DNA from: an uncultured bacterium
GTDB lineage: Bacteria > Patescibacteriota > Minisyncoccia > UBA6257 > 2-01-FULL-56-20
Length of the DNA: 64,000 bases
NCBI GenBank assembly: GCA_963844965.1
Contig: CAWJQC010000009.1
Span: forward strand, 1-64,000
Direction of reading: 5' to 3'
Below the pieces are notes generated by a model that was not told where the DNA came from, did not search any database, and saw nothing but the letters and a program-made list of their open reading frames with translations. The translations under genes were made by a program, and so were the position numbers. Positions 10,743 to 59,882 of this stretch are shown one piece after another; the stretch's first letter is position 1, and each line of letters opens with the position of its first letter.

Positions 10743-12137
10743 CTATCTTTTTAGCAAGTTGTCCGTGTAATTTACAATATCACCGGCGCCCATCATGACC
10801 AATATACACAAATCACGAGGCACGTAACACGAGACACGAGTCGCAAGAAAACTCTTCAAATTTTTGGGGTTGGCGAGGTAGAAAACCGGTTTGCCGGGAT
10901 ATTTTTTTTGGATCGCGGCGGCGAGAGTTTTGGAGGTGAACCGGTAATCTATTTTGTCGCGGCCGGCAACCTTATAGAAGGGGATTAAAACCGTAGTGTC
11001 AGCGTCGTTGAAGGCGGTGGCGAACTCTTTGAAAAGCGCTTGCAGGCGTTTTGCCTGGTGTGGCTGGAAAACGCAGATGATTTTGGATTTCGGGAATTTT
11101 TCGCGGAACGCCGCGAGAGTTGCTTTAATTTCGGTCGGGTGATGAGCGTAATCATCAAAAATTTTCAATTTACAATTTTCAATTTTTAATTGGCCACGAT
11201 ATTCAAAACGGCGCCAGGAGCCGCGGTAGGCGGAGATTGCCGCGACAATATTCTTGTGAGATATACCAAGTGCGCGGCCGGCTTTATAGGCGGCGACCGC
11301 GTTTGAAATATTGTGGACGCCGGGAATTTTTATGACCTCTTTGATTTTCTTCGCCGTGTTGCCGTGAACTGAATACCACAGAATTTTAAGATTTCTGTTT
11401 TGTGCAATCCTTTTTATTTTCGGCCGCAGAGAAAATAAGTTTTTATCGTCTTTGTTTAGGATTAAAGTGCCGCCCGGTTTTGTGCGCGCGAGAAATTGGA
11501 GGAACGCTTTTTTCACGCCGGCTAAATTTTTATAGGTGTCCAAATGCTCCTTATCAATATTGGTGACGACCGTGAGAGTGGGGGAGTAATTCAGGAATGC
11601 CCGGCCGAATTCATCGGCTTCCAAAACCAGATACGGACCTCTTCCCGAACGGAAATTTTTATCGCCCAGCTCCCTGAGCTTCGTGCCGACAATGATTGTC
11701 GGATCAAGAGCGGCTTTTTTGAGGATTAAGCCGATAAGCGTGGCCGTCGTGCTCTTTCCGTGCGCGCCAGCGACGGCGATTGTTTTGTGGCTTCCCACGA
11801 GCACTCCCACGGCCTCGGGGTAGGTGATAGTTGGGAGCCCCAAGCGAGTTGCTTCACGAAGTTCCGGATTGTCCGCTTTTACCGCTTGGCTGCGTATTAT
11901 AAGGGTTAAATCGGCTTTTATATTGCCTTTTTTATGCCCAAAATTGACCTTTACGCCCTCTTTCTGCAACTCACGAGTAATCCGACTCGGGGTCAAATCC
12001 GAGCCCGAAACAGCCCATTTTTCGCCTCTTTTTCCGGTATGATTTTGTGCGAGAAACCAGCGCGCGAGAGCGCTCATACCGATGCCGCCGATACCGATAA
12101 AGTGGACTTTTTTTTGTCTCGCTCTCGCGCCAGCCAT
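10743..12137 (-). CDS. murC: UDP-N-acetylmuramate--L-alanine ligase
   Basis: 464 aa. VHFIGIGGIGMSALA N-terminal Rossmann motif, GAHGKSTT P-loop, Mur ligase middle and C-terminal domains. Confidence 0.9.
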   Translation of the reverse strand: MAGARARQKKVHFIGIGGIGMSALARWFLAQNHTGKRGEKWAVSGSDLTPSRITRELQKEGVKVNFGHKKGNIKADLTLIIRSQAVKADNPELREATRLGLPTITYPEAVGVLVGSHKTIAVAGAHGKSTTATLIGLILKKAALDPTIIVGTKLRELGDKNFRSGRGPYLVLEADEFGRAFLNYSPTLTVVTNIDKEHLDTYKNLAGVKKAFLQFLARTKPGGTLILNKDDKNLFSLRPKIKRIAQNRNLKILWYSVHGNTAKKIKEVIKIPGVHNISNAVAAYKAGRALGISHKNIVAAISAYRGSWRRFEYRGQLKIENCKLKIFDDYAHHPTEIKATLAAFREKFPKSKIICVFQPHQAKRLQALFKEFATAFNDADTTVLIPFYKVAGRDKIDYRFTSKTLAAAIQKKYPGKPVFYLANPKNLKSFLATRVSCYVPRDLCILVMMGAGDIVNYTDNLLKR

Positions 12138-18715: not shown

Positions 18716-18854
18716 GATTTTGTTTCACTAACCAAATCGTCAAATTTTTCTGCAAAACTTATTTATTATTCAGTTAGCGGGTTAACGTGTTAACGCGTTA
18801 GAATTTTTCAATCAGTTAACTCGCTAACTTGTCAACTCTTTAATATTATAATTT

Positions 18855-27156: not shown

Positions 27157-29796
27157 TCAGTTCTCGCTCATATTACCAGGGCTGAGGTCGCTATTGTCCC
27201 AGCGGACGCCGTGTTCTTCGGTGACGTCAAACGGACTTTTCCCGCCGTTATTGTGCTCGTTGACATCGCCCGCGACACTACCCGTTCCTTTCGTGGCGGC
27301 ATAGTTTTCGCCGTCGTTGCCGTCAAAGTTTTTCTGCCCGCTTTCTTCTTGTTTTTTGCTTTGCGCGCCGGTTTCTCTTGGTGAAATTGCTGACCGCGGT
27401 GCAGCCGCCGGAATAACTTTCCGCAGCGAATCGCTTATCGCCTCGCGTAATCCACCGATATTCACTTCAAATTTCTGATAAATCTTCGGTTGTTGCTGCG
27501 GTTGTGGCTGGGATTGCTGTCGCGGTTGCTCGGGCCGCCACTGTGGTTGCGAATACCGATTTTCAGGTGCTTCCGCGCGCCGGTTGAGCCCGCTTCGTGA
27601 AACGGACGGGGGTGTCGGCCGCGAACGCGGCGCGCGATTGGACTCGCGTTCGGGGCGATCCGCTTCTCGCTCTCTCGTTCTGCCATATGAGCCGCCTGTC
27701 ACTCCCGGTCTCGGCTGGTCAATATTTTCGCGATAGTCTCCGCTCACATACAGGAGCGTCTGTTCACCGCCACTCCTTTTATCGTCGCGGCGGATAGTGC
27801 TCCGACTCATACCTGCCATATCTTTTCCACCAGTTTCAGTTTCCGAAATATTATCGTTTATGTTCGGAGAATCTTCTTTTTTTTTACTTTGATCGGCCCC
27901 TTCGCTGCGTTCATCAAGGGCAGCCGGCGGGGTTCTCGGTGGAGTTGTGGGCGGTGGCGCAGATTCTTTTTGATCGTTTTTCAGATTATTTCTCCGTAGC
28001 GAATCGCTTATTGCTTTGCGCAGTTCCTCAATGTTTACTTCGGTCTTGGGATGAACTTTTGGCTGAAAGATTTGCGGTCGGCTACCTGGTGTTGTTTTCG
28101 TTTCCTGAGGATAGGGTCTCGTTTCCTGCGGTTGCGGTCGCTCTGCGGTTCTCTGAGGAACGCGCGACTCCGTCGGGGCCGGTTCTCTAACCGTGTCTCC
28201 GGTCCGGAAGTTTGCGGACGGAAATCTCGCGGTCGCTGGTCCACGCGCAACAGCTCCGTCTTCGAAATAAGGACGTTTCAGCGGTACGACTTCGGGTCCG
28301 GGTCGGTTGCTTGTTGCGGCAGTTTCGCCCGCTGGCCGGAAACGTTTCAGCGGCACAATTCTCGGTTCCGGGCGGCTCGCGGGAGCGGAAGAGGCGTACG
28401 AAGAAGGCGGGCGTCGCTCCGGTGACGAACCTTGCAGGGTTTGCCGCAATGGGCGCTCATACTGGCGACTGACTTTCTCATCAACCAGGGTTTCGCTCGC
28501 GGTTTGCCATTCGCTCGCAATTTTATCTTCCACGATTTTTCTCGGCGTGCCATACTTCTGCTGGGAATTTTTTATAATGACGTCTTTGTAAACGAGAAGC
28601 GGAATTTTCTGAGGAGGCGGCGTTTCCGCCGAGAAAGGCCTGGAGGCCACGCCGTCTATCATGAGTTTTATGTAAATGTTGGCCTTCGCCAGATTCACGA
28701 GATCGTTCTGAAGAAATTCCGGCGTGAATTCCGTTTCCAGGAATTCCGCGTCCGCTCCGCCGACGCGGAAGCAAATTATGGTGCCGATGTTGCCGAAAAC
28801 AGAGTCACGCACCTTGGTGCTCTGGTCCGTCATGAGCTGCCCGATGTACTGGTGTGCCAGGATCAGGCTCAGGCGGTACTTTCTCGCTTCAGAAAGAATG
28901 TTGGCGAAAGAATCCGTGGCGAAGTTCTGGAACTCGTCAACGTAAAGGAAAAAGTCCCTTCTTTGCTCTTCGGGCATATCCACGCGCGACATAGCCGCGA
29001 GCTGCAGGCGGGTGATGACCATCGCGCCCAAAAGCGCCGAGTTGTCTTCGCCAATCCTGCCCTTGGACAAATTCGCTATGAAAATTTTTCCGCTGTCCAT
29101 AATCTCGCGCATGTTGAGCGTGGAATTCGGCTGTCCCAATATATTCCTGATCAGCGGATTTGAAATAAATTGGCCTACCTTGTTTTGAATCGCGGCCACC
29201 GCTTCGGTTTCCAGGCGCTGCGTGTAGCGGGCGAATTCGTTCACCCAGAAGGCCTTCACGACGGGATCCTTAAGGTTTTCCACTATCTTCTTGCGGTAAA
29301 CCGGTTCGGACAGCATCCTCATGATTCCCAAAAGAGTTGAACCGGGAAGTTCCAGAAGCGCGAGGAGCGTGTTGTTCAATATGTAAGCCATGCGCGCCGA
29401 CCAGACGTCAACGAATATTTTTTTGAAGACCCCCATGAGACCGGAGGCAACAAGGTGTCTGAATTCGGGATTGACCTGCTCCATCGGATTGAAGGCGACC
29501 GGATATTCCATATCGGCGGGATTGAAATAGATCACGTCATCCATCCTTTCTTCCGGCACGAAGTCCAAAACTTTTTCCGCAAGCTCGCCGTGGGGATCAA
29601 CAACCGCCAAGCCCCTGCCGGCTTTGATGTCAGCGATGGCCATATTTTCAAGAAGCGTGGTTTTGCCCACGCCGGTCTTGCCAATAAGGTAAACGTGCCT
29701 CCGGCGGTCATCAAGTTTTATGCCGAATTTCGTCCTCCGGTTCCTGAAATTGCAGAAACCCAGCGGCGCCAGATCTTTTTCGTTGTTACTATTCAT
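27157..29796 (-). CDS. TraD/VirD4/HerA-like P-loop ATPase (DUF87-type coupling-protein-like) with long C-terminal Pro/Arg/Gln/Ser-rich repetitive tail
   Basis: 879 aa. Walker A YLIGKTGVGKTT, Walker B FLYVDEFQNF, LILAHQYIGQL. The C-terminal 400 aa are low-complexity with two copies of a (K/P)x(I/K)(F/Y)Q...EVNI..LR.AISDSLR motif. Confidence 0.6.
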   Translation of the reverse strand: MNSNNEKDLAPLGFCNFRNRRTKFGIKLDDRRRHVYLIGKTGVGKTTLLENMAIADIKAGRGLAVVDPHGELAEKVLDFVPEERMDDVIYFNPADMEYPVAFNPMEQVNPEFRHLVASGLMGVFKKIFVDVWSARMAYILNNTLLALLELPGSTLLGIMRMLSEPVYRKKIVENLKDPVVKAFWVNEFARYTQRLETEAVAAIQNKVGQFISNPLIRNILGQPNSTLNMREIMDSGKIFIANLSKGRIGEDNSALLGAMVITRLQLAAMSRVDMPEEQRRDFFLYVDEFQNFATDSFANILSEARKYRLSLILAHQYIGQLMTDQSTKVRDSVFGNIGTIICFRVGGADAEFLETEFTPEFLQNDLVNLAKANIYIKLMIDGVASRPFSAETPPPQKIPLLVYKDVIIKNSQQKYGTPRKIVEDKIASEWQTASETLVDEKVSRQYERPLRQTLQGSSPERRPPSSYASSAPASRPEPRIVPLKRFRPAGETAATSNRPGPEVVPLKRPYFEDGAVARGPATARFPSANFRTGDTVREPAPTESRVPQRTAERPQPQETRPYPQETKTTPGSRPQIFQPKVHPKTEVNIEELRKAISDSLRRNNLKNDQKESAPPPTTPPRTPPAALDERSEGADQSKKKEDSPNINDNISETETGGKDMAGMSRSTIRRDDKRSGGEQTLLYVSGDYRENIDQPRPGVTGGSYGRTREREADRPERESNRAPRSRPTPPSVSRSGLNRRAEAPENRYSQPQWRPEQPRQQSQPQPQQQPKIYQKFEVNIGGLREAISDSLRKVIPAAAPRSAISPRETGAQSKKQEESGQKNFDGNDGENYAATKGTGSVAGDVNEHNNGGKSPFDVTEEHGVRWDNSDLSPGNMSEN

Positions 29797-29828
29797 GCTT
29801 TCAGGTTTCTATTATTGAAAATTGAAAA

Positions 29829-31130
29829 TTAGGCCGCCTCTTCTTCTATTACCGGCAGAGGCGCCGGCGGGCCTCCTTTTCGCGACTCAACTTTTTCCAA
29901 AGAAGTGGTTCCAACTCCGGTTATTGGGAAGTGATAAATGGTGGCAAGCTCCTCAATGTTCAAGATCGGCTTATGGGGATTGAAAACCATATCGCGATAG
30001 TGCTCAAAGACCAGGCGTTTGCGCCATCTGAGGCGAAGCGCCACCAGCCAGTAGTGAATGGCGCGGGTCATGGTTGCCTTATCGGGCTTCAGGAGATTCA
30101 TATTCTGCGTGTTGAATTGCCTGAAGAAACCCGATATCGATGCCACATGATCGCGGCTGAACGACCCTCGTTTATCTATGTAAAGGAAGCGGATGTTGGT
30201 CTCAAAGCCGAGTTTGGCGATCTTTCTTTCTATGCCCTCCACGACCTCTCTCTGGCCAGGGGTCAGCATCAGTATCCTGAAATTGGTTCCCTCTTCTCTT
30301 TTCCTCTCCACTTCCAATGACGGGTGTTGAAACGGGGATCTCAACACCTCCTCCATCGTTACGCCGAAGATGGAGGAAAAAAACGGCTTTTTCTTTTTCT
30401 TTTCTTCTCTGCCGGTCAATTTGTCCACAATGGCCATTCCTTTGTCTTTCCAGTCGTCGCCGGTCGGCCGCGCCATTATTTGTATCCATATCCTTTCGTC
30501 GTCCTTGAGCTTAGACACCGTTTCAATGATCATGGCCATAGGATCAACCCTGCGCTCCTCCACCGCTTCTTCAAACATCGGGTAAGTCCTTATGGGATAG
30601 CAATTCGGCGCTCTTAATATTTCTTCCTCGCCGTAGACGTCAAATACTTTATTGGGCAGGACGTATGGCATTTGTTTCACGTAATCCTCCACTTCGGTTA
30701 TTTCCGCCTCCGGATACTGGGAGTAGATAGCCGACTCCATCAAGTGGCGGAACTGTGTCGGCACGCGCATGTAAAAATGAATTTCGCCGTTCTGACCCAC
30801 CAGCTCAAACGATGTCCAGTATTCCTCTTTGCCCTCCCAATATTTTTCCGTGAGCCTCAAGCCGTAGGAATAAGGTACGTGAGCGGCGGCGAAAATCTGC
30901 TCCATGGCTTTCGGAGTCTTCAATATGTTTTTCGGGACTTTGATCTCCAGAAGCTTCCAGTCTATGCCGGTCACGAAGCGGAAGTGGAGATAAATAAGCC
31001 AGAAATCCCAGAAGAAGAAAAATGCGAGGAGCGGCAGGGCTATCCACCACACGGCGCCCCAGACGCTTCTGACGCTTTCCCAAAGGCCGCTCAGAAGCGG
31101 CGAACTGGCGATTATTTGCGACGGAGTCAT
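29829..31130 (-). CDS. hypothetical membrane protein encoded immediately upstream of the TraD-like ATPase (probable operon partner)
   Basis: 433 aa with two N-terminal TM helices (WGAVWWIALPLLAFFFFWDFWLIYL). 32-nt gap to the ATPase gene. Confidence 0.5.
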   Translation of the reverse strand: MTPSQIIASSPLLSGLWESVRSVWGAVWWIALPLLAFFFFWDFWLIYLHFRFVTGIDWKLLEIKVPKNILKTPKAMEQIFAAAHVPYSYGLRLTEKYWEGKEEYWTSFELVGQNGEIHFYMRVPTQFRHLMESAIYSQYPEAEITEVEDYVKQMPYVLPNKVFDVYGEEEILRAPNCYPIRTYPMFEEAVEERRVDPMAMIIETVSKLKDDERIWIQIMARPTGDDWKDKGMAIVDKLTGREEKKKKKPFFSSIFGVTMEEVLRSPFQHPSLEVERKREEGTNFRILMLTPGQREVVEGIERKIAKLGFETNIRFLYIDKRGSFSRDHVASISGFFRQFNTQNMNLLKPDKATMTRAIHYWLVALRLRWRKRLVFEHYRDMVFNPHKPILNIEELATIYHFPITGVGTTSLEKVESRKGGPPAPLPVIEEEAA

Positions 31131-31138
31131 AGAGATTT

Positions 31139-31278
31139 CAATTTCTAATTTCTAATATCTAATTTCTAAATAACACCGAAATCCCAATGCCCAAAATTCT
31201 AAACGTTTGGGATTTGCGATTTGTATATTGGGATTTGTTTAGGATTTAGAAATTTAAATTTAGAAATTTCTGCCATAC
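31139..31278 (-). repeat. AT-rich intergenic element copy A (tagaaatt repeats + ttgggattt repeats) abutting the start codon at 31130
   Basis: Shares an exact 31-nt core aatttctaatttctaatatctaatttctaaa, followed by tgtttggg.tttg.gatttg...ttgggattt.tttagga.ttagaaatt, with copy B at 33395. Confidence 0.6.
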
Positions 31279-31371
31279 TTATAAGTATAAAATCAAAGTG
31301 CAATAACCGCCAATCACAACTATTCGCGAATATTCGCGAATATAATTTTGCATAATTCGGATTTATTCTGG

Positions 31372-32019
31372 TTACGCTTCGCGCACTCGGTATCTTCCAT
31401 CAGGTAAGCGTTCAAAGAAACTTTTGTTTTGCAGGTTTATAAGAACGGTGTTGGGTTTGAAGAATCTTTGTTTTGCCACGTGAGCGACGACATCGTTCGG
31501 CTTCAGCGGTCCCGCCTCCCGCAGAACCTTTTGTATCACTTCCCGCGCGATTCCCGGCTCGTAGCCGTGTTCGCGGAGAGCGTACATCCCGCGTCCAACC
31601 AGCACGAACCGCTCGTCTTTGATCAGCTCGTTATGAACGGTGGGCGCGAGCGCAACCTGGCCGCTGAGTCCGCTCTCATTTATGACCTTGGCTATGTCCA
31701 CGAAATGAAGCGGCTCTTGTTTCTTTTTTAGAACCAAGTAGATGCGGTCTCTCGTGGTCATCGGCTTAATCTCCGGCCAATCGCGCAAGCCAAAATCGCC
31801 GTAGGAATTCTGGCAGATCTTCTTTGAAATACTCAAATAGTTTTCAGCGTGATTTTTGTTGGTTAATTTTGCCCTACTGAACTCCCTGAAGCTTTCAATA
31901 TAAGCGCCGTCCAATATTTTGGGTTTGCGCTCCTTGAGGTGCGAGACCCATCCATCAATAAAACCAACCGCTGTTTTGAGATACGTTCTTGGAAAGGTAA
32001 TAGAACGGCCAGAAGTCAT
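31372..32019 (-). CDS. winged-helix DNA-binding protein (HARE-HTH/RNAP-delta-like region); may be the C-terminal part of the overlapping upstream sigma-region-4 ORF
   Basis: 215 aa. Segment PLHFVDIAKVINESGLSGQ...FVLVGRGMYALREHGY resembles HARE-HTH. Overlaps the ORF 31955-32404 by 65 nt in another frame. Confidence 0.4.
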   Translation of the reverse strand: MTSGRSITFPRTYLKTAVGFIDGWVSHLKERKPKILDGAYIESFREFSRAKLTNKNHAENYLSISKKICQNSYGDFGLRDWPEIKPMTTRDRIYLVLKKKQEPLHFVDIAKVINESGLSGQVALAPTVHNELIKDERFVLVGRGMYALREHGYEPGIAREVIQKVLREAGPLKPNDVVAHVAKQRFFKPNTVLINLQNKSFFERLPDGRYRVREA

Positions 32020-32404
32020 CGTCTTCCGGGTGGTAGTAAAAAGCTGGAAGCGCTTCTATCAAAAGCGCCAGGTGATGATCGCCCAAGCCGTCAGCGATAT
32101 CTTTCAAGTTGCCGAGAAGCGCGTCGTTCTTCATAACGCCGCCGGCGTTTTTCAGATGCTTTTTACTGGAAGCGATTATTTGCGCGCAGTCGGGATTCTT
32201 TGAAATTTCCTTTGAAATGGTATCTATGGCTGAATTCTCTATTTGTCTGATTCTTTCCCGCGTTACGTGCATTCTGTCGCCTATCGCCGCCAGCGTTTCA
32301 TAATCGCCTTTGTTATTCAAACCAAAACGGCCGCAAATTACTTCCTTTTGGCGGCTATTTAAGACACTTATTAAACTATTGAACAACTTCTGTGCCGAAG
32401 TCAT
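31955..32404 (-). CDS. sigma-70 region-4 (HTH) domain protein
   Basis: 149 aa. RQKEVICGRFGL...TLAAIGDRMHVTRERIRQIENSAI matches the sigma-70 region 4 HTH. Confidence 0.5.
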   Translation of the reverse strand: MTSAQKLFNSLISVLNSRQKEVICGRFGLNNKGDYETLAAIGDRMHVTRERIRQIENSAIDTISKEISKNPDCAQIIASSKKHLKNAGGVMKNDALLGNLKDIADGLGDHHLALLIEALPAFYYHPEDDDFWPFYYLSKNVSQNSGWFY

Positions 32405-32487
32405 ATGAGTTATTTGTTAGTTATTATACACCAGAGACCTTTTAAAAGTCAAGGGGGGGTTGCCCACACCCCATTTTTGGGCTTATT

Positions 32488-33394
32488 TTATAAGGATTTT
32501 GAGGGGCTTTTACCGAATATGAGAAGGGCGGGGCTGGCAATGAAGATAGATGAGTAAATGCCGGTAGTAACGCCGACGAGAAGCGTCAAAATAAAGTACC
32601 GCAGATTTATGGGACCCGTGAAGTACATGGCGACGAGCACCAAAATCAGCGTAAGAGAGGTGTTTATGGATCTCGCCAGGGTTTGATTGACGCTTGCGTT
32701 TATAAGGGTCTCAAAGTCCTCCCTGCCTCTGCTTTTTAACAAATTTTCCCTTATTCTGTCAAATACCACGATTGTGTCGTGCACTGAGAAACCCATGACG
32801 ACGAGGAGTGCGACCACGAAATTGCTGTCAATCTCAATTTTCAAAAAATGTCCGAGCAACGCGAGGAGACCGGCTGGAATGGCGACGTCGTGAAAAAGCG
32901 TGAGTAGCGTCACGATGCCATACTTCCAGGAGCTCACCGGCCGCGACGCCTTTCTGAAAGCGAAGGCTATGTAAAGAGAAATGCCGATAAGGACGAGGCC
33001 GATGGCGATCAAAGCGTCCTTGCGGAGCTCCACGCCGATTGACGGTCCGATGGACTGGAAACTCAATTCGTCAAACGAAGGAATTTTGTTCTTAAGGACG
33101 CTCAAATATTTTTGGTGGTCGGTTTCGTTTATCTCCCCGGCCCGCACGAGGAATGTTCCGTTGGTTGTGTCGTAAGTAGCTACGGCATCCGGCAGGGCTG
33201 AGATCGGTATTGAAAATATTCTGGACGGCAGCCGGATCCGTATTGCCGCTCGCGGCCCGGAACTGCCAGAGCGTCCCGCCCGCAAAATCAACCCCTTCTT
33301 TAAACCTGAAGATGAGCATCGCGAGGATAGCTACGCCGACCAAGACACCGGAGAGCAAATAGAAATATTTTCGATTACCGATGATGTTTAACAT
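32488..33394 (-). CDS. secF: protein translocase subunit SecF, interrupted by an apparent frameshift between about 33200 and 33290 (N-terminal 100-aa ORF 33092-33394, C-terminal ORF 32488-33291)
   Basis: N-terminal ORF: TM helix plus GVDFAGGT. C-terminal ORF: SecF/SecD RND-like TM bundle (LARSINTSLTLILVLVAMYFTG). Directly downstream of secD. Confidence 0.7.
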
Positions 33395-33492
33395 AAATTT
33401 CTAATTTCTAATATCTAATTTCTAAACAATATGTTTGGGGTTTGTGATTTGGGTGTTGGGATTTATTTAGGAATTAGAAATTAGGATTTAGG
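33395..33492 (-). repeat. AT-rich intergenic element copy B abutting the secF start codon and overlapping the secD 3-prime end
   Basis: Same 31-nt core and ttgggatttatttaggaattagaaatt tail as copy A. Confidence 0.6.
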
Positions 33493-34785
33493 ATTTGTTG
33501 TCTTGTCGTCTTTAATGAAGACCCTGAGGAACAGCCGCGTTGTCGTAATGGCGGAAAACAAGCTAACAAGAACGCCGATGAGGAGTGTCAGGGCGAAACC
33601 GCGAACAAAACTTGAAGTAAATTCATAGAGAATTATCGCCGTGATTATCGTGGACATGTTGGAATCGCGAATGGAGGGCCAGGCGCGCCGGAAGCCCTCT
33701 TCCATGGCGGATGTCTTTGAAAGTCCGTGTTTCAGTTCTTCTTTAATGCGTTCAAAGGTCAGGATGTTTGCGTCAACGGCCATACCGATGGTCAGGATAA
33801 ATCCGGCGAAACCGGCGAGACTTAGCGTTATTGGTATGAGTTTGAATACGCCGAGCGTGAGCGCGATATAAATAAGGAGCGCTAACGCGGCGTAAATGCC
33901 AAGCTTCCGATAGTACATGAGCATGAAAATAATTATAAGTACGGTGCCGATGATGCCGGCAATTATAACTTTGCGCAACGAGTCCGCTCCCAAGCTCGGG
34001 CTTATCGTCTGCTGATTGATAAGCGTGATCGGCGCGGGCAGCGCTCCGGCATTGAAACGCTCAACAAGTTTCTGCGCTTCGTCCACGGTGAAGCTGCCGG
34101 TAATCACGGCATGCCCTCCGGAAATCTGTTGCTGAACGACGGGGCAGGTCATAAGCTGATTGTCTATGAAAACAGGCAATGGCCTTTGAATATTTGCTCC
34201 CGTGAGATTTTCAAAAATCTTCGCGCCTTCGTCATTGAAAGTGATGGACACGCGCGGCGCGCGAGTTGTTTGGTCAAACTCCAGCTGTGCCCCCGTGACA
34301 TACCGTCCGGTCAGGTTTGTTACGACAAGAGTTGAACTTGCCGGGACGTTGCAGGCCGCGGCTATATCCGGCGGCATGGGGGCTACTTTCTCGCCCGGTG
34401 TGGGAGTTTCTATTTGTGCAAAATAAAGAAGCGGTGTTGAACCGATTTCCTTGATGGCGTCCGAAATATTCGTTACACCGGCCAGTTCCACGACGAGCTG
34501 GGCGTTGCCGCCTGACCTCGCGGTAAATATTTGCGGCTCACTCACACCAAATAAGTTCACTCTACGCTCTATCACGTCCCGCAGTCCGTTGATAACGGAA
34601 TCTTGGTCGGTAGCCGCTACTTGGGAGAGGTCAATCTGATAGACGAGGTGGCTGCCGCCGACCAAGTCCAGCCCCAGACGCCACGGCTGGTATCTGGCGC
34701 CGAGCCATTTCGGATAAACAAAAATCACGGCCGCGATAGCGACCAAAATTATGATTGTTAAAAACAAGCCCGGATTACGGCGCAT
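33481..34785 (-). CDS. secD: protein translocase subunit SecD
   Basis: 434 aa. N-terminal TM, large periplasmic domain, C-terminal six-TM bundle with LAGFAGFILTIGMAVDANIL typical of SecD. Confidence 0.85.
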   Translation of the reverse strand: MRRNPGLFLTIIILVAIAAVIFVYPKWLGARYQPWRLGLDLVGGSHLVYQIDLSQVAATDQDSVINGLRDVIERRVNLFGVSEPQIFTARSGGNAQLVVELAGVTNISDAIKEIGSTPLLYFAQIETPTPGEKVAPMPPDIAAACNVPASSTLVVTNLTGRYVTGAQLEFDQTTRAPRVSITFNDEGAKIFENLTGANIQRPLPVFIDNQLMTCPVVQQQISGGHAVITGSFTVDEAQKLVERFNAGALPAPITLINQQTISPSLGADSLRKVIIAGIIGTVLIIIFMLMYYRKLGIYAALALLIYIALTLGVFKLIPITLSLAGFAGFILTIGMAVDANILTFERIKEELKHGLSKTSAMEEGFRRAWPSIRDSNMSTIITAIILYEFTSSFVRGFALTLLIGVLVSLFSAITTTRLFLRVFIKDDKTTNPKS

Positions 34786-36583: not shown

Positions 36584-37720
36584 CTATTCTTCTTTCTCCA
36601 ATTCTTCCAATAGTTTCTTCGCTTTCGGGCTTAATTTCTTCGGCGCCTTGACAGTGAAAGTCACGAGTAAATCGCCGCGGTTTACACCGAGCACCGTCGA
36701 GGTGCCAAATTTTGGCATTCCTTCCTCCGGAATCCGCAAGTTTTCCTTCAGATTGAAGTGCGCCGGGATTTCAATATTGATTTTCCCGCCGCCTATGGTC
36801 GGTATTTCTATTTTGCGTCCCAGAAGGAGGTCAAAAATATTCAGGTCCTTTTTGATGACGAGGTCGCTGCCGTGGCGTTCAAAGACCGGATGCTGGCGGA
36901 CGCGGACGCGGATATAGAGGTCGCCCGCCGCTGTGCCGCGCTCCCCCGCCTCGCCCATTCCTTTTATTTTTATAAGCTGGCCGTCATCAACGCCGGGCAA
37001 AATTTCAACTTTCACCTCGCGCTCGCCCGTGATTTTGCCGTTTCCTTTACAATAGCCGCAGACCTTGTTGGGAATCTGGCCCACGCCGTTGCATTTCGTA
37101 CAGGCCCTGATCTGCGAAAACGTGCCGAAAAAAGTCCTGCGTTGTTCGCGGATCTCTCCCTGCCCGCCGCAGACGGAGCAGGTCGTAAAGCCGGCAGAGG
37201 CGTCGCTCCCCTGCCCCTTGCAGTGCTCACAACGGAGCGATGTTTTTATTTTAAGGTCCTTCGTGACCCCGCGGAACGCTTCCTCAAGCGTCACCTCTTC
37301 CATCATTTCCAAATCCGAACCCCTCTCGTACGTGCGGCGGCGCGGCTTCACGCCGAGTCCCTCAAAGAAACTTTCAAAAATATCGCCAATGTCGCCGAAG
37401 TCCGAATAATTTCCGCCTTCGCTGCCGGGAAATCCAAAACCTTCCCAGTTAAATCCGCCGGGAAATCCACCCCACTCGGGCCCCGCGCCTCCTCCCCAGG
37501 AAAAGCCGCTAGCGGGCTCCGCCGTTCCGAAGCGGTCATAGTTGGCGCGCTTCGCTTTGTCCGACAGAACCTGATACGCTTCGTTTATTTCCTTGAATTT
37601 ATTTTCGTCGCCGCCGGCTTTATCCGGATGATACTGGTGTGCGAGCCGCCTGTAGGCCTTTTTAATCTCCTCTTCGGAGGCGTTTTTGGTCACGCCTAAA
37701 ATTTTATAATAATCTCTCAT
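36584..37720 (-). CDS. dnaJ: molecular chaperone DnaJ
   Basis: 378 aa. J-domain with HPD ([10 protein letters not shown]), G/F-rich region, four CxxCxGxG zinc-finger repeats, C-terminal domains. Confidence 0.92.
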
Positions 37721-37808
37721 AAAAATTTTTAATTTTAAAATTTTGCAATTTTCAATGATAACGCGTTTGAAAATTAAAAATTAGAAATTGAAAATTGGTC
37801 AGTATTCA

Positions 37809-43440: not shown

Positions 43441-45250
43441 GTCGACAGCCGGCCGGAAATCGGCACCTGGAGCACAGCGGCAGCGCTACACATAGACACC
43501 AACGGCAACTCGATCTTCGATCCCGACAACCTCGATTTCACCAACCGCGACCTGGTCTACAGCTTCGGCTTCTCCACCGACAACATGTTCTCCGGCAACT
43601 TCAGCCCGATCGGGGCCGCAGCGGCCGACGGCTTCGACAAGCTGGCCGCCTACGGCAAGATCGGCACGCAATATCGTTGGATCGTCAACACCAATAACGA
43701 CGGCGTGCCGGACGATGGTGGTCAACGACCCGGCGAACATCAACGGCTTGCCGGTCGCCGGCAACTTCGACGGCAACGCCGCCAACGGCGACGAGGTCGG
43801 GCTGTTCGACGGCGCAACTGGTGGCTCGACACGAATCACGACTACAAAGTCAACACGAAAATCGTCAGCTCGTTGCGGGGTTATCCGATCGTGGGCGACT
43901 TCGACGGCGACCACAACTTCGACCTGGCGACCTACCAGGTCAACCCGGTCAACAAGTTCTTCTTCGAGTTGGAGCCGCTAGTGCCACGCCGGTGTTCAAG
44001 AGCATCGATGCCGCGAGCCAGTTCGGCTACATTGGCGTTCGCTCACGGCCGGTCGCGGCCGACATCGAGCGCGACGGCACGACCGACGTGGGGCTGTGGG
44101 TGCCGGACCGCACCGGCGCCACGGGCGACCACATCGGCGAATGGTCGTTCCTGCTCTCCAATTTCGTAGACGCAGCAAGGGCACGGTCAGTACGCTGGAC
44201 CATCAGTTTTCGCCGACGCCGTTGAGCACGACCTGCTTCGCCCGCTTCGGCAACGAGTTCCCTGCCGATGGTGGGTAATTTTGATCCGCCGCTGGCCAGC
44301 GTCAAGGCGGGGCCGGCGATTTCCGGCGTGGTGCTGACCGTTTCCGGGACGAAGCCGACGGTCACTTGGGCGGTGGACGCCGGCCGAGCATTGCCGCGGC
44401 GACGTTGTTGGTGGACGGCAAGGCGGTGGCGGTTTCCAAGCTATCGGGCAGCGCGACGCACGGCAGCTATTCCGCCGGCGCTGGCGGGGTTGAACCTGGC
44501 GGCGGGCAGTCACAGCTTTGTGATCAAGGCCACGGACTCGGCGGGCACGCCCGCCACGACGCAATGCACGGGCACGTTCGACGTCGTCGGGCCGACGATC
44601 AAGGGCGTGGCACTGTCGGTTGCGAAGGGCCTACTCACGTGGAACGCGGTTTCGCCGAACGGCATGGCCGGCGTTGCCCTGATGATCGACAACAAGTCGG
44701 TGTCGAAGATCGCGCTACGCCGTCGGAATTACGCTGGGACGATGGGTTTGCCGGGGATCGGCACCACAAGTACGTCATCACGGCCACCGACAAGACCGGC
44801 AAGAGCGTGACGCTAAGCGACAGTTTTGTCGTTACCGCCCCGACGATCAGCAACGTAGCGATAGCGGCTGCGAAGGGCTTGATCACGTGGACGGCTGCGG
44901 CTTCGCGGCGTGGCGAGTGTTGGTCTGACGATCGACGGCAAGCGAGTGTCGAACACAAGCGGTCCCAACGCGGCGGGGAACTGCTACGGGTTGGCGGGCA
45001 AGCTGCCGGCGGGCACGCACAAGTACGTCATCACGGTCACTGACAAGGGTGGCAAAGCGGTGACGCTTGGCGGTTCGTTCGTGGTGAGCAAGCCGTCCAA
45101 GGCTGTGCAGAGCACCGCGATATCGAGTGCAAGCCGGCTCTGCGTTGTCCGATTCGGCCAAGGTTGCCTGGCTTTACGATCTTGGCGGTTTGACCGGCAC
45201 ATCGTCGAGTACGACCAAAAAGAGCACGTCCGCCCAAGCCGCGGACACCG
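43441..45250 (+). pseudogene. 5-prime-truncated, multiply frameshifted gene for a secreted FG-GAP / Ig-like-repeat surface protein (GC about 65%, foreign-looking)
   Basis: Protein-like segments in alternating frames: NTNNDGVPDD, AGNFDGNAANGDEVGLFDG and IVGDFDGDHNFDL (FG-GAP-like), then three approx. 100-aa Ig-like repeats (..GSHSFVIKATDSAGT.. / ..HKYVITATDKTGKSVTL.. / ..HKYVITVTDKGGKAVTL..). At least 6 frame changes. Confidence 0.5.
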
Positions 45251-45689
45251 TTATTGCCCGCTACTGAGCAGGGTTACAAGGATCGAGAAGCGGTTGAGGC
45301 GACAAGCGACATTGCCTTGTCGTAAGGATAGCATGCGTCGGGACGAGGGTTTCGAAATGGCACTATTTCGGGAGCGAACGCCTGGTCGCAGGATGGGTGC
45401 ATTTACTTACAGGATGTTTCGCCGTGAGAGTTCACCCGACAGGCGGTTGAGGATTTTTTTGAGGGTTGTGCCAACCATCTCCTGATTACCAATTGAGGTT
45501 TGGTGTTAAGAATAAGTGAAACTTGGCTCTCCGACTCGTCTGTATCGGGCGGGGATCGGCGAATCGGACGGGCCCGTCTGCCGGAGCCGTTGATCTTATA
45601 CCAGTCATTTAGAGTCGATCACCGCCGGCTCAGCCTTGCTCTGAGCCAGCCCAATAAGGGAGATTTCTGCCATGTGGTAACACCAAGCC

Positions 45690-48600
45690 ATGGGATTCCG
45701 TAACAACTCGCGACGTTCCTCCTCCGCCACGCGGCAGAAGTCGAAGCCATTCTCGATGCGAAACCGACACGCAGCATTTGAACCCCTCGAAGAGCGTCAG
45801 TTGCTGAGCGTCACGCTGACGGGCGTGCCGGATTGGGTCGCTAAGGGTACCGCCCCGATCGTTGCCGGCAACAGCGACAACGTTACGGGGATGACGCCCG
45901 CCACCAGCCTGGAAGTCGGCGCTGTGAACGCTCTGGCGGTCGACCCGACAAACACCAAGCATCTCTTTGCGGCCACCGTGAATGGCGGCATCTGGCAAAC
46001 CAACGACTTCACCGTGGCGAACCCGACCTGGACCACCAGCACGGATCTCATGCCGTCGCTGGCGATCAGCGCTATCGCCTTCAGCCCCACTAACAGCAGC
46101 GTCATCTATGCCGGAACGGGCAGCTACAGTTCCACGGGTGGCGGTGTGGGCGGGGCCGGCATGGGTGGCGGCTCTGTCGGGCTGTACAAGTCAATCAATG
46201 GCGGGGCCACCTGGCAGGTCATCGACCCGAATGGCATCTTCACCGGACTGCGCAGTCCGGCGAGTTGTCCCGAGACGCTTAACGGAGGCCAAACCGTCTT
46301 TGCGGCCGCGACCGATACGGCGGCCGGGAGCGGCGGCGTCTACCGCTCGGACGATGGCGGCGGCACCTGGACGCGGCTCTCGGGCGATAACGGCCTGCCC
46401 AACGCGGGCGTCACCGACCTGGTGGCTAATCCGGCCAACGCCAACCAGTTCTTCGCTGCGGTCGCCGGCGGATCCGGCGGCGCCGGCGGCACGGGCGGCA
46501 TCTTCAGCCTCGATCTATCGGTGAATACAACCTGGACGAACATTACGGGTAATATCAACACCATCAATCCCGGCGTGCTCAACAATGCGATCCGGGTGGA
46601 GTTGTCTGTCAGCATCGCCGGAGTGAATCCGATCTGGGCGAGCGTGATCAACAGCAGCGGCTTCTACGCCGACGTCTTCCGGGCGCCGAACGCCGCATCG
46701 CCCACATGGGCGGCCGTCGGACCCGGCGGTTTGCTTCCGGACGTTCTCCAAGGCAATCAGGGTGGCGTTCACGGCTCCATCGAGGCCGACCCCAACTCCG
46801 ACACGGTCGTGTACATCGGCGGCGATGCAAAGCAGACTGCCAGTCCCTTTAGCGGGTATCTTGCCCGAGGTGATTCCGGCACCAACACCTGAACCGGCAT
46901 GACCCCCGTCGATACCGTGACGGCGAACCCTGGCCTGACCGTCATCCCGACGGCTAATGGCGTCACCGCCGCCCCGCATCCGGACACCCGCAACCTGGTT
47001 TTTGCCTCTGGCGGAGTCCTGCTGGTATCGTGCGACGGCGGCGTCTACCAAGCCACAAACCCGACGGGGGCCGGGCCGGCGATGGCCTGGACTTCGATTA
47101 ACGGCACCCTCGAAGACAGCGAGTTTTACACGGTTTCCTATGACAACCGAAACACGGCAGCCACGGCCGACGATCTAATCGAGGGGGCCGCCCAGGACGA
47201 CAGCTCGAGTGAGCGGAACACGGCTGCCGTTTGGAACACCCAGACAGGCGGCGATGGCACCGTCGTGCTGGCTGACCCCATCAGCGACACACGCTATTTC
47301 TCGATGCAGAACTACTTCATGGGTAGTGTCATCGGCGGGGGCGGCGTCAATCGACCCGCCGGCACTGTCGCGGGCACGGGGGGCAAGGTTCTGAACGCGG
47401 CTAACGCCGGCACCAAGGCCGAGACGTTCCCCTTTACCCCCGCCTTCCAAATCAACCAGGGGGACATCGGCAGCGGGGCGGGCACGGCACGGGTTATCCT
47501 GGGGGGCAATCAGACGCTCTATGTCTCCAGCGACCAGGCAGCCAACTACACCTCGATCGGCGGCACAACTGCAAATAACCCCGACCCCGTGACCAACCTA
47601 ACCGCCCGGGTGATCACGATCGCGTTTGGTGCGGCGACCAATACGAATGCCTGCTACGTCGCTATGTCCGACGGCAACGTCACCAAGACGACGGACATCA
47701 CCACTGCCGGCGGTGGTTTCAGCCTCACGACCTTCCTTGCGACGGCCGGCGGTGAGGATGGCGCAGGGTATGGCGATCGATCCCAACGACGCGAATACGG
47801 TCTACGTAATCACTCTGACGCGCAGCCTGCGTGACCACGGACGGCGGCACTACGTGGGCCAACATCACGGACAACCTGGCATCCCTGTTCACTCCGGGCT
47901 TTGCCAGCAACGTGAGTCCGAGTCAGGAGCGGGGGATCACCCTGTTCAACAACGGCACGGCAACGAAGGCCGACGACGTGCTGTTGATCGGCGGTCCAGG
48001 CGGTGTCTTTCGGCGTCTGGCCGCATCGCCCCCGGGTGGCATTTGGAGCCAATATGGCGTTGATTTGCCCAACGTGCTGGTCGACAGTCTGCAATATGAC
48101 CAACTGAGCGATACGCTTCTGGCTGGCACTTTTGGCCGCGGCGACTGGACGGTTAGCAGCGTTGCCACCACAATTAACGCCGCTGGCGTGATGGTGATCT
48201 GCGGCGACCAGGATTTTGCCAACGAAGACGACACCTTTAAGCTGGTCCGCGACCCCGGCGATCCGTTGCTGTTGGATGTGTTTCAGAACAACACCACCAC
48301 TACCCCCGACTTCCAAGTGCCGTTGGCGGTGGTCCAGCAGATCGACGTCTTCGCCGCCGGCGGCAACGACAACTTGATTGTTGACAGCAGCAACGGCCTG
48401 ATCAGCGTCGCCGGCGGCATTCGTTACGACGCCGATCACGGCTGCCCGGGCGACACAGCCGCCGGAATCGGCGGTTTCGACCGCCTCACCCTCACCCAGA
48501 ATCTGACGGGTGGCCCCGCCATCGCTTCCGATCAATTGGCGCCGGGTGCCACCCCGGGCGACGGCATCAGCACCGTCAACGACACGGCCGGCAACGTCCA

Positions 48601-51223
48601 GACGATTGATTTCCAGTACCTCGAACCGGTTGTCGATAACGTCCCCTCGCCGACGTTCGATATCGCCGCCGTCCCCGGATTGGCGAGTCTGCTGGACGCC
48701 GACAACGCCATCGACTATACGGCCAGCCAGATTCTGCTTACCGGCGGCCGCGTGACGATCGACAATTTCGAGCCGATCGAGTTCGAGAACAAGGTCACCT
48801 TGGTCATCGACGCCGGGGCCGGCAGTGATGCGATCAATCTGAACAATCCCACCACGCCCACCGGCCTGGCGGCCATCACCGTCAACGGTGGCGACCCGTC
48901 GCTCGCCGATACGATCACCGTCAACGGCATCAAGGGGGCTACGGACCATTTCGTGGTGCTGCCCACGGCCGCAGGCAACGGAAACATTTTCGACACCGAC
49001 ACAGCGAGCGCCAAATATCGCCCCCGAGGTTCACTATTCCGGCATGCAAGGGGTCAACGTCGTGGGCCAAAACGCGGATGCGGACGCCTTGGCGGACGGA
49101 GGAACTGTGGGCGACGACTCGTTCACCTATAATCCTGGCACGACCGCGTCTTCCGGAGAGATTCACGGTTTCAACAGCGGTTTCTCCTTTGGGGCCTTGA
49201 CCTTTAACGGAATCACCGGCTGGGTCACGATGGGATCGCCTTTGGTGAACCTTACCGCAGGTTCGGCGACCGGCCTCCTCGTCCTCGGCGGCCACGACAC
49301 GGTGGTCATCGACGGGACGGCGGCTGACGATTCCTTCAATTGGGACAATTCTCTTGTATTCCTGCAGGTGCGAGTGGACACTGGCGGCGACCTTCACACC
49401 CCCATCGTCCTGGCCGGCGACCAAATCGTTGGATACGTTTCACACGTCATTGTGCAGGGGCTCGACGGCAACGACACGTTCAATGTGATTCCTGGGGGGG
49501 CCCCTGGCAGTGACTTGTTCGACATCCGCATCGAAGGAGGGGATTCCGATAGCTTTACCGACACACTAAACCTCAGCGGCGCCGTCGGCCCGGTGGGGGT
49601 GAATCTGGCCGACAGCACCGTGCCCTCCGACACCTCGATAACCGGCTACGGCAGCACCGTCACGCTCACCGGCGTCGAGTTGGTCCACATGGATGTCAAC
49701 GGCACAAACCCTGACGGTCACGGGCACGGCGGGCGCGGACCAGTTCAACTTCACGCCCACGGCGCTGGGCGTCGGCAGTTTCAAGGTCACGACCACCGGC
49801 GCCATCGTCGAGACCAGCCCGCAATTCACCTATACCGGCGTGGCGGCCACGGGCGTCACGCTCAACGGCGGTACGGGCGGATTCGACGTGCTGGGACTGA
49901 CGGCCACGGCCGGCAACGACACGATCAACGCCGTGCAGACCGACGCCACGCATTTGAGCTTCACCCTCAACGCGTTCACGCAGCCTTTCATTTTCGCCAC
50001 GCCGGCTTCGGTGCCAGGGGTCAACATCTACGCCGGCGCCGGCGATGACTTGATTCGCGTGAGCGTGACCAATGCGCTGGAAAGCACCACGCCGAGCGCC
50101 AGCCTGCGGTTCACGGTCGACGGCGGCGAGCCCAATGCCAGCGATCGGCTGCTCGTGAACGACGACGGCATTGGCGACCTGACTATCCTTCGCCAGGGCC
50201 CCGATGATCGAAGCGGCTCGGTGACGGTGGGCGTTCTGAATCCCGTTGTCTATGAAAACGTCGAGCGTCTCGACGTCACGCCGCTTAATCCCATCACCGG
50301 TGGGACCGGCACTGACGGCAACGGCCGCATCTTCGTCATGCATCAGAATCCGTTCGAGACCAACGACAGCCTCGCGAACGCACGGCGCAGATCGAGCGGC
50401 TGGCCGATTCGCCGACCAGCCCCACGATCGACCCGGCCGGCCTCAATACCCCTCCGTTTACGGTCAGCGGCGACGAAGATTGGTACGTCTTCCGTCCCAA
50501 GTTCACCACGGACTACCAAGTCCGCATCCTGTTCCATCGCATCGTGGCTTTGGCGAACGGCCGGCCTGGCCTGCCGGGCACCGGCGACTTGTCGCTCGAC
50601 ATCTACGACGCCAACGGGGCGTTGATCGTCTCCGGCGTGGCCGATGGAAACGGCGACAACCGCACGGCCATTTTCGGGGCCACGCCCACCGTGGCACAGT
50701 TCGCCACGATCTATATCCGCGTCAAAGGCGGAGAAGCGCCAGCTGGCGCCTCGGTCAATCTCTACGACTTCGACAACATCACCGCATTGACGTTCCCGGT
50801 GCCACCGGGGGTCGGCAACGTGGACGTGTTCGGTCCCCAGGTCACCGGCGTGGCCATCACCACCGCGCCGGCCTACAACTTGTTCGATCCCAAGGAATTC
50901 ACACATGGCGGCCTGGGCCCGACGCCATTGGTAAACGGCCTGACCATCAGTTTCAAGGATTTACCGGCACGCACCCCGGGCTTCGTCTATCCGGCCCTCG
51001 ATCCGGCCACGGCCAGCACCCGGGCACTTATGTGGTCAAGGGAGATGCCAACGGCATCGTTCAGATCTCGCAGATCATCGTGACCAACAACCCGCCGGCG
51101 GTGGGACAGGTGCCCACGGCGACGGTCCAACTGGTTTTCGCCCAGCCGTTGCCCGACGATCGCTTCACGTTGACGATCAACGACAATCTGCTCGATCCGG
51201 CCACCGCGTCTATAAATCCCTGA
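45690..51223 (+). pseudogene. large Planctomycetes-type secreted BNR/Asp-box repeat protein gene, disrupted by an in-frame TGA (46890) and at least 8 frameshifts
   Basis: N-terminus RRSSSATRQKSKPFSMRNRHAAFEPLEERQLLSV (planctomycete-type N-terminal motif). BNR repeats SINGGATWQ, SDDGGGTWT, TTDGGTTWA. C-terminal PPC-like segment DEDWYVFRPKFTTDYQVRI. The reading frame hops 0>0>1>2>0>1>0>2. Confidence 0.5.
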
Positions 51224-51401
51224 ACCGCCGCCTCCAAAATTTTCTGCGTTCTTTCCGTAAACATGGAGTAATCGCGAATAATGCGAATCTATTTTAAATA
51301 ATGCGAATATTATTATTAGTGTTATTTGCTATCATTCGCATTATTAGCGAACACTCCGAATTATAGTCCTATTGGCAATCTTGTCAAGCGATTGCTAATA
51401 C

Positions 51402-59791: not shown

Positions 59792-59882
59792 ATTTATTAT
59801 CTATTAACGAATTAACGGATTTGAATTTTTGATACGTTAATTCGTTAATCCGTTAATTTACCAATTTGATTTAATTAAAAGC

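Follow-up and report, generated by a model that had tools for sequence, protein, structure and literature searches.

Two short AT-rich blocks in a 64,000-nucleotide stretch of DNA from an uncultured bacterium of the Patescibacteriota (positions 1 to 64,000 of contig CAWJQC010000009.1; this whole stretch is referred to as the window) share a 31-nt sequence and stand directly 5′ of two start codons, that of secF and that of a gene for a 433-residue membrane protein. The data discussed here suggest, with a probability that we put at roughly three in four, that both blocks are copies of one dispersed palindromic repeat of ~100–150 nt, located in transcribed spacers, and that this repeat is the form without an open reading frame (ORF), resembling a MITE (miniature inverted-repeat transposable element), of a cassette encoding a PF05635 protein. 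The blocks belong to the repeat family, the family is linked to the PF05635 cassette, its members lie at gene junctions, and they are present or absent at the same junctions in related genomes; gain or loss of the window copies falls in the clade's recent past. Most likely the element is selfish, MITE-like and of the intervening-sequence (IVS) type, with an A/U-rich end that now forms the leader of the downstream gene.

The 31-mer, AATTTCTAATTTCTAATATCTAATTTCTAAA, has exactly two copies on the plus strand of the window, at 31140–31170 and 33396–33426, and thus the exact repeat 5′ of two ATGs reported in the initial annotation of this DNA is borne out. No third site is present in the window at up to three mismatches, and 100 shuffles gave no match. 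Both downstream genes are encoded on the minus strand. Read in their sense, the 31-mer is TTTAGAAATTAGATATTAGAAATTAGAAATT, in which four UAG triplets recur at an exact spacing of 7 nt; it is separated from the ATG by 9 nt (433-residue ORF) or 1 nt (secF). Each 31-mer constitutes one arm of an imperfect palindrome (104–134 nt in the window copies), and the ttgggattt/tttagga block that had been noticed beside it is real and corresponds to the opposite half of this palindrome. The palindrome arms (31147–31195 and 31220–31268 in copy 1; 33396–33426 and 33466–33496 in copy 2) show 73–82% complementarity and are runs of 7-nt units, AAATyCT in the left arm and TTAGrAT or TTAGAAA in the right arm. This 7-nt period gives a self-match at lag 7 of 0.56 in copy 1 and 0.64 in copy 2, relative to ~0.2–0.3 at most other lags. 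Moreover, both copies have a GC content of 26%, as compared to 50.5% for the window, and all six of their frames contain two or more stop codons. The parts of the two copies are as follows.

~31138–31271, minus strand: copy 1, a complete ORF-less palindrome (covariance-model match 31134–31274), between the promoter-like site described below and the ATG of the 433-residue ORF
31140–31170, minus strand: outer right arm of copy 1, equal to the 31-mer
31171–31196 and 31207–31237, minus strand: inner arms of copy 1, with units of the TTTGGGA/TCCCAAA type
31197–31206, minus strand: loop of copy 1, 10 nt
31238–31268, minus strand: outer left arm of copy 1, reading TTTAGGATTTAGAAATTTAAATTTAGAAATT on the plus strand
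~33395–33498, minus strand: copy 2, with the inner right arm deleted (covariance-model match 33390–33502)
33396–33426, minus strand: outer right arm of copy 2, equal to the 31-mer and ending 1 nt before the secF ATG
33466–33496, minus strand: outer left arm of copy 2, holding the last four secD codons and the TAA stop

Copy 2 occupies the whole secD–secF spacer. With covariance model R1, the minus strand of copy 1 reaches 104.9 bits and its plus strand 98.8 bits (nhmmer, 85.6 and 76.9), and copy 2 scores 66.2 and 65.2 bits on its two strands (nhmmer, 54.0).

The element is not confined to the window. A degenerate pattern spanning all four window arms, scanned over a one-genome-per-species collection, matched at least 120 loci (loci from this and the other searches are cited below by L numbers). 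As labeled by their records, the matches listed include many Patescibacteria lineages, Planctomycetota, Nitrospirae, Deltaproteobacteria, Bacteroidales, Omnitrophota, WOR-3, and others, and about half of the listed matches have a palindromic partner 100–150 nt away. Thirty-three full copies align end to end over ~140 nt, including the non-repetitive inner arms, with the family consensus AAATyCTAAATCCTAAgcaCTAAATCCTAAACAAatTCAAAt..CAAAATTCAAAAC - loop - TTTTGAA..TTTGAATTTGTTTAGGATTTAGATATTAGGATTTAGrATTT. An asymmetric internal mismatch, GCA in the left arm facing ATA in the right, is kept across the aligned copies, which argues for common descent rather than independent slippage. In 909 kb of sequence (121 sequences, i.e., 120 fetched loci and the window), nhmmer identified 133 distinct sites, two of them in the window. 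On the basis of the covariance model and nhmmer, copies are often found at a density of two to four per 8 kb (four in L068 and three in L099), and L091 carries a tandem pair. The exact 31-mer of the window recurs in six other loci. The suggestion in the initial annotation of a small mobile repeat agrees with this dispersal over many genomes and with the variable occupancy of orthologous junctions discussed below. In some copies the loop contains an extra GC hairpin (L088 and L049), and L012, L098, and L110 have pure heptamer runs of TTAGAAA and other units.

Searches of reference collections returned no previous description of the family. Rfam gave one tRNA only at the gathering threshold and nothing on the elements at E values up to 10. 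The literature searched by sequence strings yielded no relevant paper and none containing the element sequence, and in the literature searched there was no description of this specific family, of 7-nt periodic arms, or of spread to sites 5′ of start codons across phyla. A scan of viral contigs detected six short heptamer runs, without a full element or a PF05635 ORF; phages were considered as a vector and rejected on these short runs.

The link to PF05635 emerges from loci in which the two halves of the element are separated. In L030 and L047 the halves lie ~300 nt apart and enclose an ORF of ~120 codons, the product of which matches PF05635, a family called "23S rRNA intervening-sequence protein" (E = 6e-15 in L030 and 2e-13 in L047); L100 and L064 have the same layout, with arms around an ORF of ~120 codons. 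A metagenome scan with an alignment of the enclosed ORF proteins gave 80 loci. At these loci, a hidden Markov model of the arms, built from ORF-less copies only, matched on the left of the ORF in 66, on its right in 63, and on both sides in 54. The geometry is stereotyped: the element starts exactly 40 nt before the ORF ATG in 53 of 66 loci, its right end lies ~64–68 nt past the ORF stop, and a co-oriented start follows the cassette within 40 nt in at least 35 of 53. Moreover, the consensus of the ORF-less copies retains an ATG and the first codons (ATG ACC AAA ATT CAA; cf. MTEIQ in L030). Shared arms at fixed offsets from the ORF, together with the retained ATG and first codons, suggest that the ORF-less elements derive from the cassette; judged by sequence, the ~140-nt elements look like internal-deletion derivatives of a ~470-nt cassette. 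This cassette is the sole longer form of the element that was found, and it encodes PF05635 and no known transposase. Among the cassettes, that in L010 keeps the periodic design with different units, and in L064 (800–1900) a PemK/MazF-like toxin gene splits the PF05635 ORF within the arms and a second partial copy comes after it, an arrangement of nested elements. With respect to the encoded protein, PF05635/S23p is similar to Avd, an accessory protein in diversity-generating retroelements (PMC10053308), and S23p is described as a toroidal homopentamer of four-helix bundles (PMC4990558).

The two junctions occupied in the window were also compared with those of relatives. The genes concerned are listed here.

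33481–34785, minus strand: secD, with its TAA stop at 33481–33483
32488–33394, minus strand: secF, with its ATG at 33392–33394
31372–32404, minus strand: sigma70_r4/HARE-HTH gene, between the two copies
29829–31130, minus strand: 433-residue membrane-protein ORF, with its ATG at 31128–31130; orthologues in relatives are annotated PF26449 DUF8128
27157–29796, minus strand: VirD4/TraG-like ATPase gene, downstream of the 433-residue ORF

Homologues of SecD come under source names such as Patescibacteria, Paceibacterota, and Minisyncoccia, which puts the source organism among these. The order secD–secF–sigma/HTH–DUF8128 is kept in five relatives. Copies at their junctions were found by synteny and not by the arm pattern, and are therefore free of ascertainment bias. 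The states of the junctions are given below, with the identity of SecD in brackets; the records that extend over the sigma-HTH/DUF8128 junction are L125 and L127–L129.

L128 and L129 (76%): secD/secF empty, with an 8-nt overlap, ATGCTTAA; sigma-HTH/DUF8128 empty, 29 nt
L122 (84%): secD/secF with a short remnant, 24 nt
L123 and L124 (81%): secD/secF with the orthologous element, ending ...AGAAATTT-ATG
L125 and L126 (80%): secD/secF with a different periodic palindrome of ATCAGC/GCTGAT units; in L125, sigma-HTH/DUF8128 with a 122-nt spacer without a full element
L127 (80%): secD/secF with the different ATCAGC/GCTGAT palindrome; sigma-HTH/DUF8128 with the orthologous full element

Given these empty, filled, and replaced states, occupancy of the sites has changed by gain, loss, or replacement among close relatives, in every case immediately 5′ of the ATG. 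The ATCAGC/GCTGAT palindrome has a period of ~10 nt (L125, 3867–3964; L126, 1534–1631; L127, 1324–1421), and the secD–secF junction seems to be a recurrent landing site. Orthologous copies share 30 of 31 arm positions, and the right-arm stretch is identical at 38 of 39 positions between copy 2 and L123 and at 32 of 34 between copy 1 and L127. Over the whole aligned stretches (the element and ~330 nt of coding sequence) the identity is 69% for copy 2 and L123 and 80% for copy 1 and L127, with ~70–77% for the coding part as judged by eye. A right-arm identity above that of the coding sequence suggests that the arm is constrained, is homogenized between copies, or has been repeatedly re-inserted.

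In the window, secF and the sigma70_r4/HARE-HTH gene, which both lie between the repeat copies, are each broken into two frames by one frameshift (at 33198–33200 and 31980–31988, respectively). The corresponding genes are intact in relatives (301–306 and 343 residues), and the frameshifts could be sequencing or assembly errors or could mark real pseudogenes. An independent short-read Logan contig with an identical secD (L001, 3165–3247) stops inside copy 2.

Placement relative to genes was recorded with the elements in canonical orientation. Beyond the right end comes a co-oriented ORF start in 30 cases (0–11 nt away in 23) and a convergent gene end in 24. On the left, the element touches or overlaps the stop of a co-oriented gene lying upstream in 24 cases and faces a divergent start in nine. 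Copies are also located exactly between tRNA genes (L035 and L072) and inside large- or small-subunit (LSU or SSU) rRNA genes (L011 with two copies, L031, L038, L041, L085, and L090). Such placement at junctions, between tRNA genes, and in rRNA genes means that the element is non-randomly placed and that its habitat is transcribed spacers. The initial annotation had taken scattering over random positions and both strands as the mark of a simple dispersed repeat: the element is indeed a dispersed repeat that occurs in both orientations, but its positions are not random. Small GC-rich hairpins often stand on both sides of copies that lie in rRNA or tRNA contexts; they contain GCGAAGC in L003, L031, and L090 and have other loops in L035 and L027.

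When a co-oriented start lies within 40 nt of the element end, the distance is at most 12 nt in 29 of 39 cases. The spacers of these 29 close-range cases are A/T-rich and only one has a Shine–Dalgarno (SD)-like motif; SD motifs appear in longer spacers. An A/U-rich translation leader, one of the roles proposed in the initial annotation, is accordingly plausible as a secondary effect of the element. The lack of an SD sequence at the two window genes does not set them apart, as an SD-like motif precedes only 4 of the 45 ORFs in the window. Several window ORFs have a TATAAT box 7–10 nt before the ATG, and together with the scarcity of SD motifs this suggests that the source organism has many leaderless or very short-leader mRNAs. 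The element was also considered as a supplier of an SD sequence (AGGA) and rejected in this role: an AGGA end is present in just 9 of the 29 close-range cases, and the window copies end in AGAA.

The following scenario would account for the two window copies. One copy would have inserted directly 5′ of the secF ATG, where it now supplies the secD stop codon, and another immediately upstream of the DUF8128/VirD4-like operon's start codon. Because the element has stops in all six frames, the end of secD could be replaced by the insertion without harm. More generally, the element would be tolerated by virtue of these stops, of leaving coding sequence uninterrupted, and of an A/U-rich end usable as an SD-less leader. 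Both copies would be transcribed with their flanking genes, copy 2 within the secDF operon and copy 1 below a weak conserved promoter-like site (31313–31284). This site, on the minus strand at 31284–31313 just upstream of copy 1, is a weak sigma-70-like sequence (TTGGCG-18-TATACT, 9 of 12 positions) with a flank that is conserved in L127; if it is active, copy 1 would form the 5′ leader of the membrane-protein/VirD4-like operon. The RNA would then fold into a long A-U/G-U hairpin, RNase III might cut this hairpin as it does in rRNA intervening sequences, and after folding or cleavage the A/U-rich right arm could act as the SD-less translation-initiation leader of the next gene.

Several observations weigh against this interpretation. 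Neither a target-site duplication nor a recognizable transposase was seen, and mobility rests on the distribution and on the empty and filled sites. In the search for a duplication, the ends of aligned copies had no shared direct repeat, and none was apparent between the empty L128 and the filled sites, which are too diverged for an exact comparison. No PF05635-like ORF was detected in the window by tblastn. The orientation of the window copies is weakly defined, with a strand difference of 1–9 bits, and the phylum labels of the matching loci were taken from record titles only. The folding data point in the same direction. The two copies fold into hairpins of −30.3 and −15.5 kcal/mol in the sense strand and of −36.2 and −26.8 kcal/mol in the antisense strand (z-scores −3.1 to −6.1, with −6.1 for copy 2), so that the antisense strand folds better than the sense strand. 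No compensatory covariation between the arms was observed, and RNAalifold keeps only eight pairs. In 34 outer-arm pairs read in the gene-sense strand, C·A mismatches outnumber G·U pairs (86 and 44). Since covariation is lacking and C·A exceeds G·U, the sense RNA hairpin is not obviously under selection. Lastly, the strong conservation of the right arm could reflect some host-level function.

The variable Y/R positions of the arms combine as if they were independent (for instance, TG 11, TA 9, CA 7, and CG 3). The conserved feature may therefore be the sequence of the arms rather than sense-RNA pairing, which would fit recognition by a protein. In this context, the arms could be a putative protein-binding array, in which a ring-shaped protein (a pentameric PF05635 protein or a HutP- or TRAP-like one) would bind the 7-nt UAG/CUA units and govern how the adjacent gene is processed or translated. 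This idea is compatible with a selfish element, and we consider it unlikely but worth keeping in sight. The four UAG triplets at exact 7-nt spacing in the right arm favor it, as does the finding that variation in the arm units is unrelated to base pairing, which is what recognition of sequence and not of structure would predict; other cassettes (L010) are likewise periodic with different units. HutP binds three XAG triplets with 4-nt spacers, i.e., a 7-nt unit (XAG-N4 x3), in RNA upstream of coding regions (PMC2425495). The context and the taxa differ, no HutP-like gene was identified, in an analysis that included no search aimed at one, and this resemblance is a lead only. The toroidal homopentamer formed by S23p (PMC4990558) would provide a ring. 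Against such an array, the window has no PF05635 gene in its 64 kb, and the periodicity could be a relic of an origin of the arms by slippage.

A broader version of the selfish-element interpretation, which we hold tentatively and rate as improbable, is that PF05635 cassettes and their ORF-less derivatives constitute one pan-bacterial mobile family that homes to sites 5′ of start codons and to rRNA helix loops. The pentameric Avd-relative protein would recognize the 7-nt arms and bring about processing at the RNA level or retro-mobility, in trans also for ORF-less copies like the two of the window, and the right arm would be a portable SD-independent initiation region.

The initial annotation also raised the possibility of a shared promoter or regulator site. 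In this model the 31-mer would be a host cis-regulatory element (promoter, operator, or translation enhancer) coupling secF to the DUF8128/VirD4-like genes. The identical 31-mer directly 5′ of both ATGs, the right arm being far more conserved than adjacent coding DNA at orthologous loci, and start codons no more than 12 nt beyond the element in 29 of 39 cases are all in keeping with it. However, unrelated genes follow the same element in at least 100 genomes, and copies also reside at convergent gene ends, between tRNAs, and within rRNA genes. Both junctions lack the element in the syntenic L128 and L129, and L125–L127 have another palindrome at secD/secF. A consensus scan for sigma-70 sites (−35/−10, 16–18 nt spacing) detected none inside either copy, while the neighboring gene is preceded by a clear TTGACT-18-TATAAT site (32452–32423); a promoter within the element is hence not supported. 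A −10-like TAGAAT/TAGAAA can be discerned by eye at the arm end and was rejected as a promoter as it has no usable −35. Copy 2 lies inside the secDF operon, where a promoter is not needed. Collectively, these data make a host regulatory element quite unlikely.

It is very unlikely that the blocks are chance or independent products of replication slippage, that is, non-homologous heptamer microsatellites. The pure heptamer runs in L012, L098, and L110, and viral contigs that match by short heptamer runs only, speak for slippage. Nevertheless, full copies align over ~140 nt including non-repetitive inner arms, the asymmetric GCA/ATA mismatch is conserved across them, dozens of loci have the arms at a constant offset from the PF05635 ORF, and no shuffle gave a match; the full-length alignment and the fixed cassette geometry largely refute this explanation. 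A guide-RNA array of the TIGR (tandem interspaced guide RNA) or CRISPR type, as described in bacteria of the candidate phyla radiation (CPR), has a practically negligible probability: the DNA comes from a CPR bacterium, and the AT-richness of the element, its repetition, and the poor conservation between its units would suit such an array, but its period is 7 nt instead of 36-nt units with two variable spacers, and its neighbors (secD, secF, the sigma-like, DUF8128, and VirD4-like genes) include no adjacent Tas (Nop-domain) gene (PMC12045711), and it was rejected on unit length and neighboring genes.

With dispersed copies of a selfish element as the preferred interpretation, the kind of element involved is already known, namely palindromic elements that are IVS-type and MITE-like. 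Enterobacterial repetitive intergenic consensus sequences (ERIC, or intergenic repeat units, IRU) and the Correia elements (also NEMIS) are imperfect palindromes of ~100–150 nt that are multi-copy, transcribed, intergenic, and variably present, and that can form RNase-sensitive hairpins in mRNA. The present family is similar in its length of ~100–150 nt, its palindromic structure, its multi-copy intergenic occurrence, and its variable presence among relatives. It differs in that no duplication of TA or another target was seen, in that the longer relative encodes PF05635, and in its spread across phyla rather than within a genus or family. As in a classical MITE, the copies are short and numerous and have terminal inverted repeats, but no insertion sequence encoding a transposase and having the same ends was found.

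The rRNA intervening sequences are parasitic elements with terminal inverted repeats, some with an S23p ORF, that are excised by RNase III and thought to have spread horizontally (PMC4990558). The S23p intervening sequences of Coxiella and Leptospira resemble the present family in having terminal inverted repeats and a long stem around an ORF of ~120 codons for a four-helix bundle, in being AT-rich relative to the host, and in a sporadic distribution suggesting horizontal transfer (PMC4990558); moreover, some members of the family lie inside LSU or SSU rRNA genes. In contrast, the window copies lack the ORF, have 7-nt periodic arms, and occupy mRNA spacers 5′ of start codons instead of rRNA. 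They are thus not rRNA intervening sequences in the strict sense, as they stand outside the rRNA helices (23S helix 25 or 45, or 16S). In CPR bacteria, rRNA genes carry short ORF-less insertions at classical IVS sites, and 23S_rRNA_IVP ORFs are present in 16S and 23S insertions (PMC11270868). The copies in L011, L031, L038, L041, and L085 fit the description of such ORF-less insertions, which are <200 bp long, free of ORFs, and distinct from introns (PMC11270868). That survey covered rRNA genes only and defined no sequence family, whereas the present family reaches protein-gene junctions and non-CPR genomes.

Two other types of repeat deserve comparison. The TAACTGA heptamer repeats of Beggiatoaceae, Cyanobacteria, and Bacteroidetes also consist of tandem 7-nt units a few nucleotides from start codons and occur patchily across phyla without a known means of transfer, but the unit is another one, the repeats are direct and not in inverted arms, and no associated ORF is known (PMC4679880). 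Repetitive extragenic palindromes and bacterial interspersed mosaic elements (REP/BIME) are GC-rich, 20–40 bp long, and marked by a GTAG/CGTC tag (PMC3733652), in contrast to an element of 26% GC and 104–134 nt without that tag.

Other parts of the window show related or unusual features. Intergenic periodic palindromes are also present at 37718–37802, 51266–51356, 59790–59860, ~18720–18800, and 31321–31342, with the units AATTTTC/GAAAATT (just 5′ of the dnaJ ATG), AATGCGAAT, TTAACG, GTTAAC/GTTAGC, and TATTCGCGAATATTCGCGAATA; these may belong to sister families of similar nature. A short AATTTTCAATTTTCAATAA string at 29797–29828, in the 32-nt spacer from the DUF8128-like ORF to the VirD4-like gene, may be a remnant of a related repeat. 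A heptamer-like sequence, AATTGAAAATTGTAAATTGAAAATT, is found in frame in a Mur-ligase ORF (11149–11191), where it encodes QLKIENCKLKIF just before DDYAHHP. The region 43500–51000 has a GC content of 62%, relative to ~48–50% elsewhere in the window, and its plus-strand ORFs are rich in internal repeats and have no Pfam match; this block may be a chimeric assembly, may come from foreign DNA, or may code for a large repeat protein.

Annotation should mask the two blocks as a repeat family instead of reading them as operon-specific regulatory sites, and the repeat also breaks short-read assemblies, as illustrated by the Logan contig that ends in copy 2. The family links three observations that are as a rule considered apart: the 23S intervening sequences with S23p ORFs, the short unexplained insertions in CPR rRNA genes, and AT-rich palindromes at mRNA start codons. 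Its stereotyped cassette (40-nt arm, ORF, and 66-nt arm), together with the ORF-less copies, offers a handle on the role of the PF05635/Avd-like protein and on the cross-phylum spread of intervening sequences, and the positions of the elements make them naturally suited to testing how Patescibacteria initiate translation independently of an SD. Should the PF05635 cassettes and their ORF-less derivatives prove to be one pan-bacterial mobile family, the S23p/IVS proteins, long without an explanation, would acquire a function.

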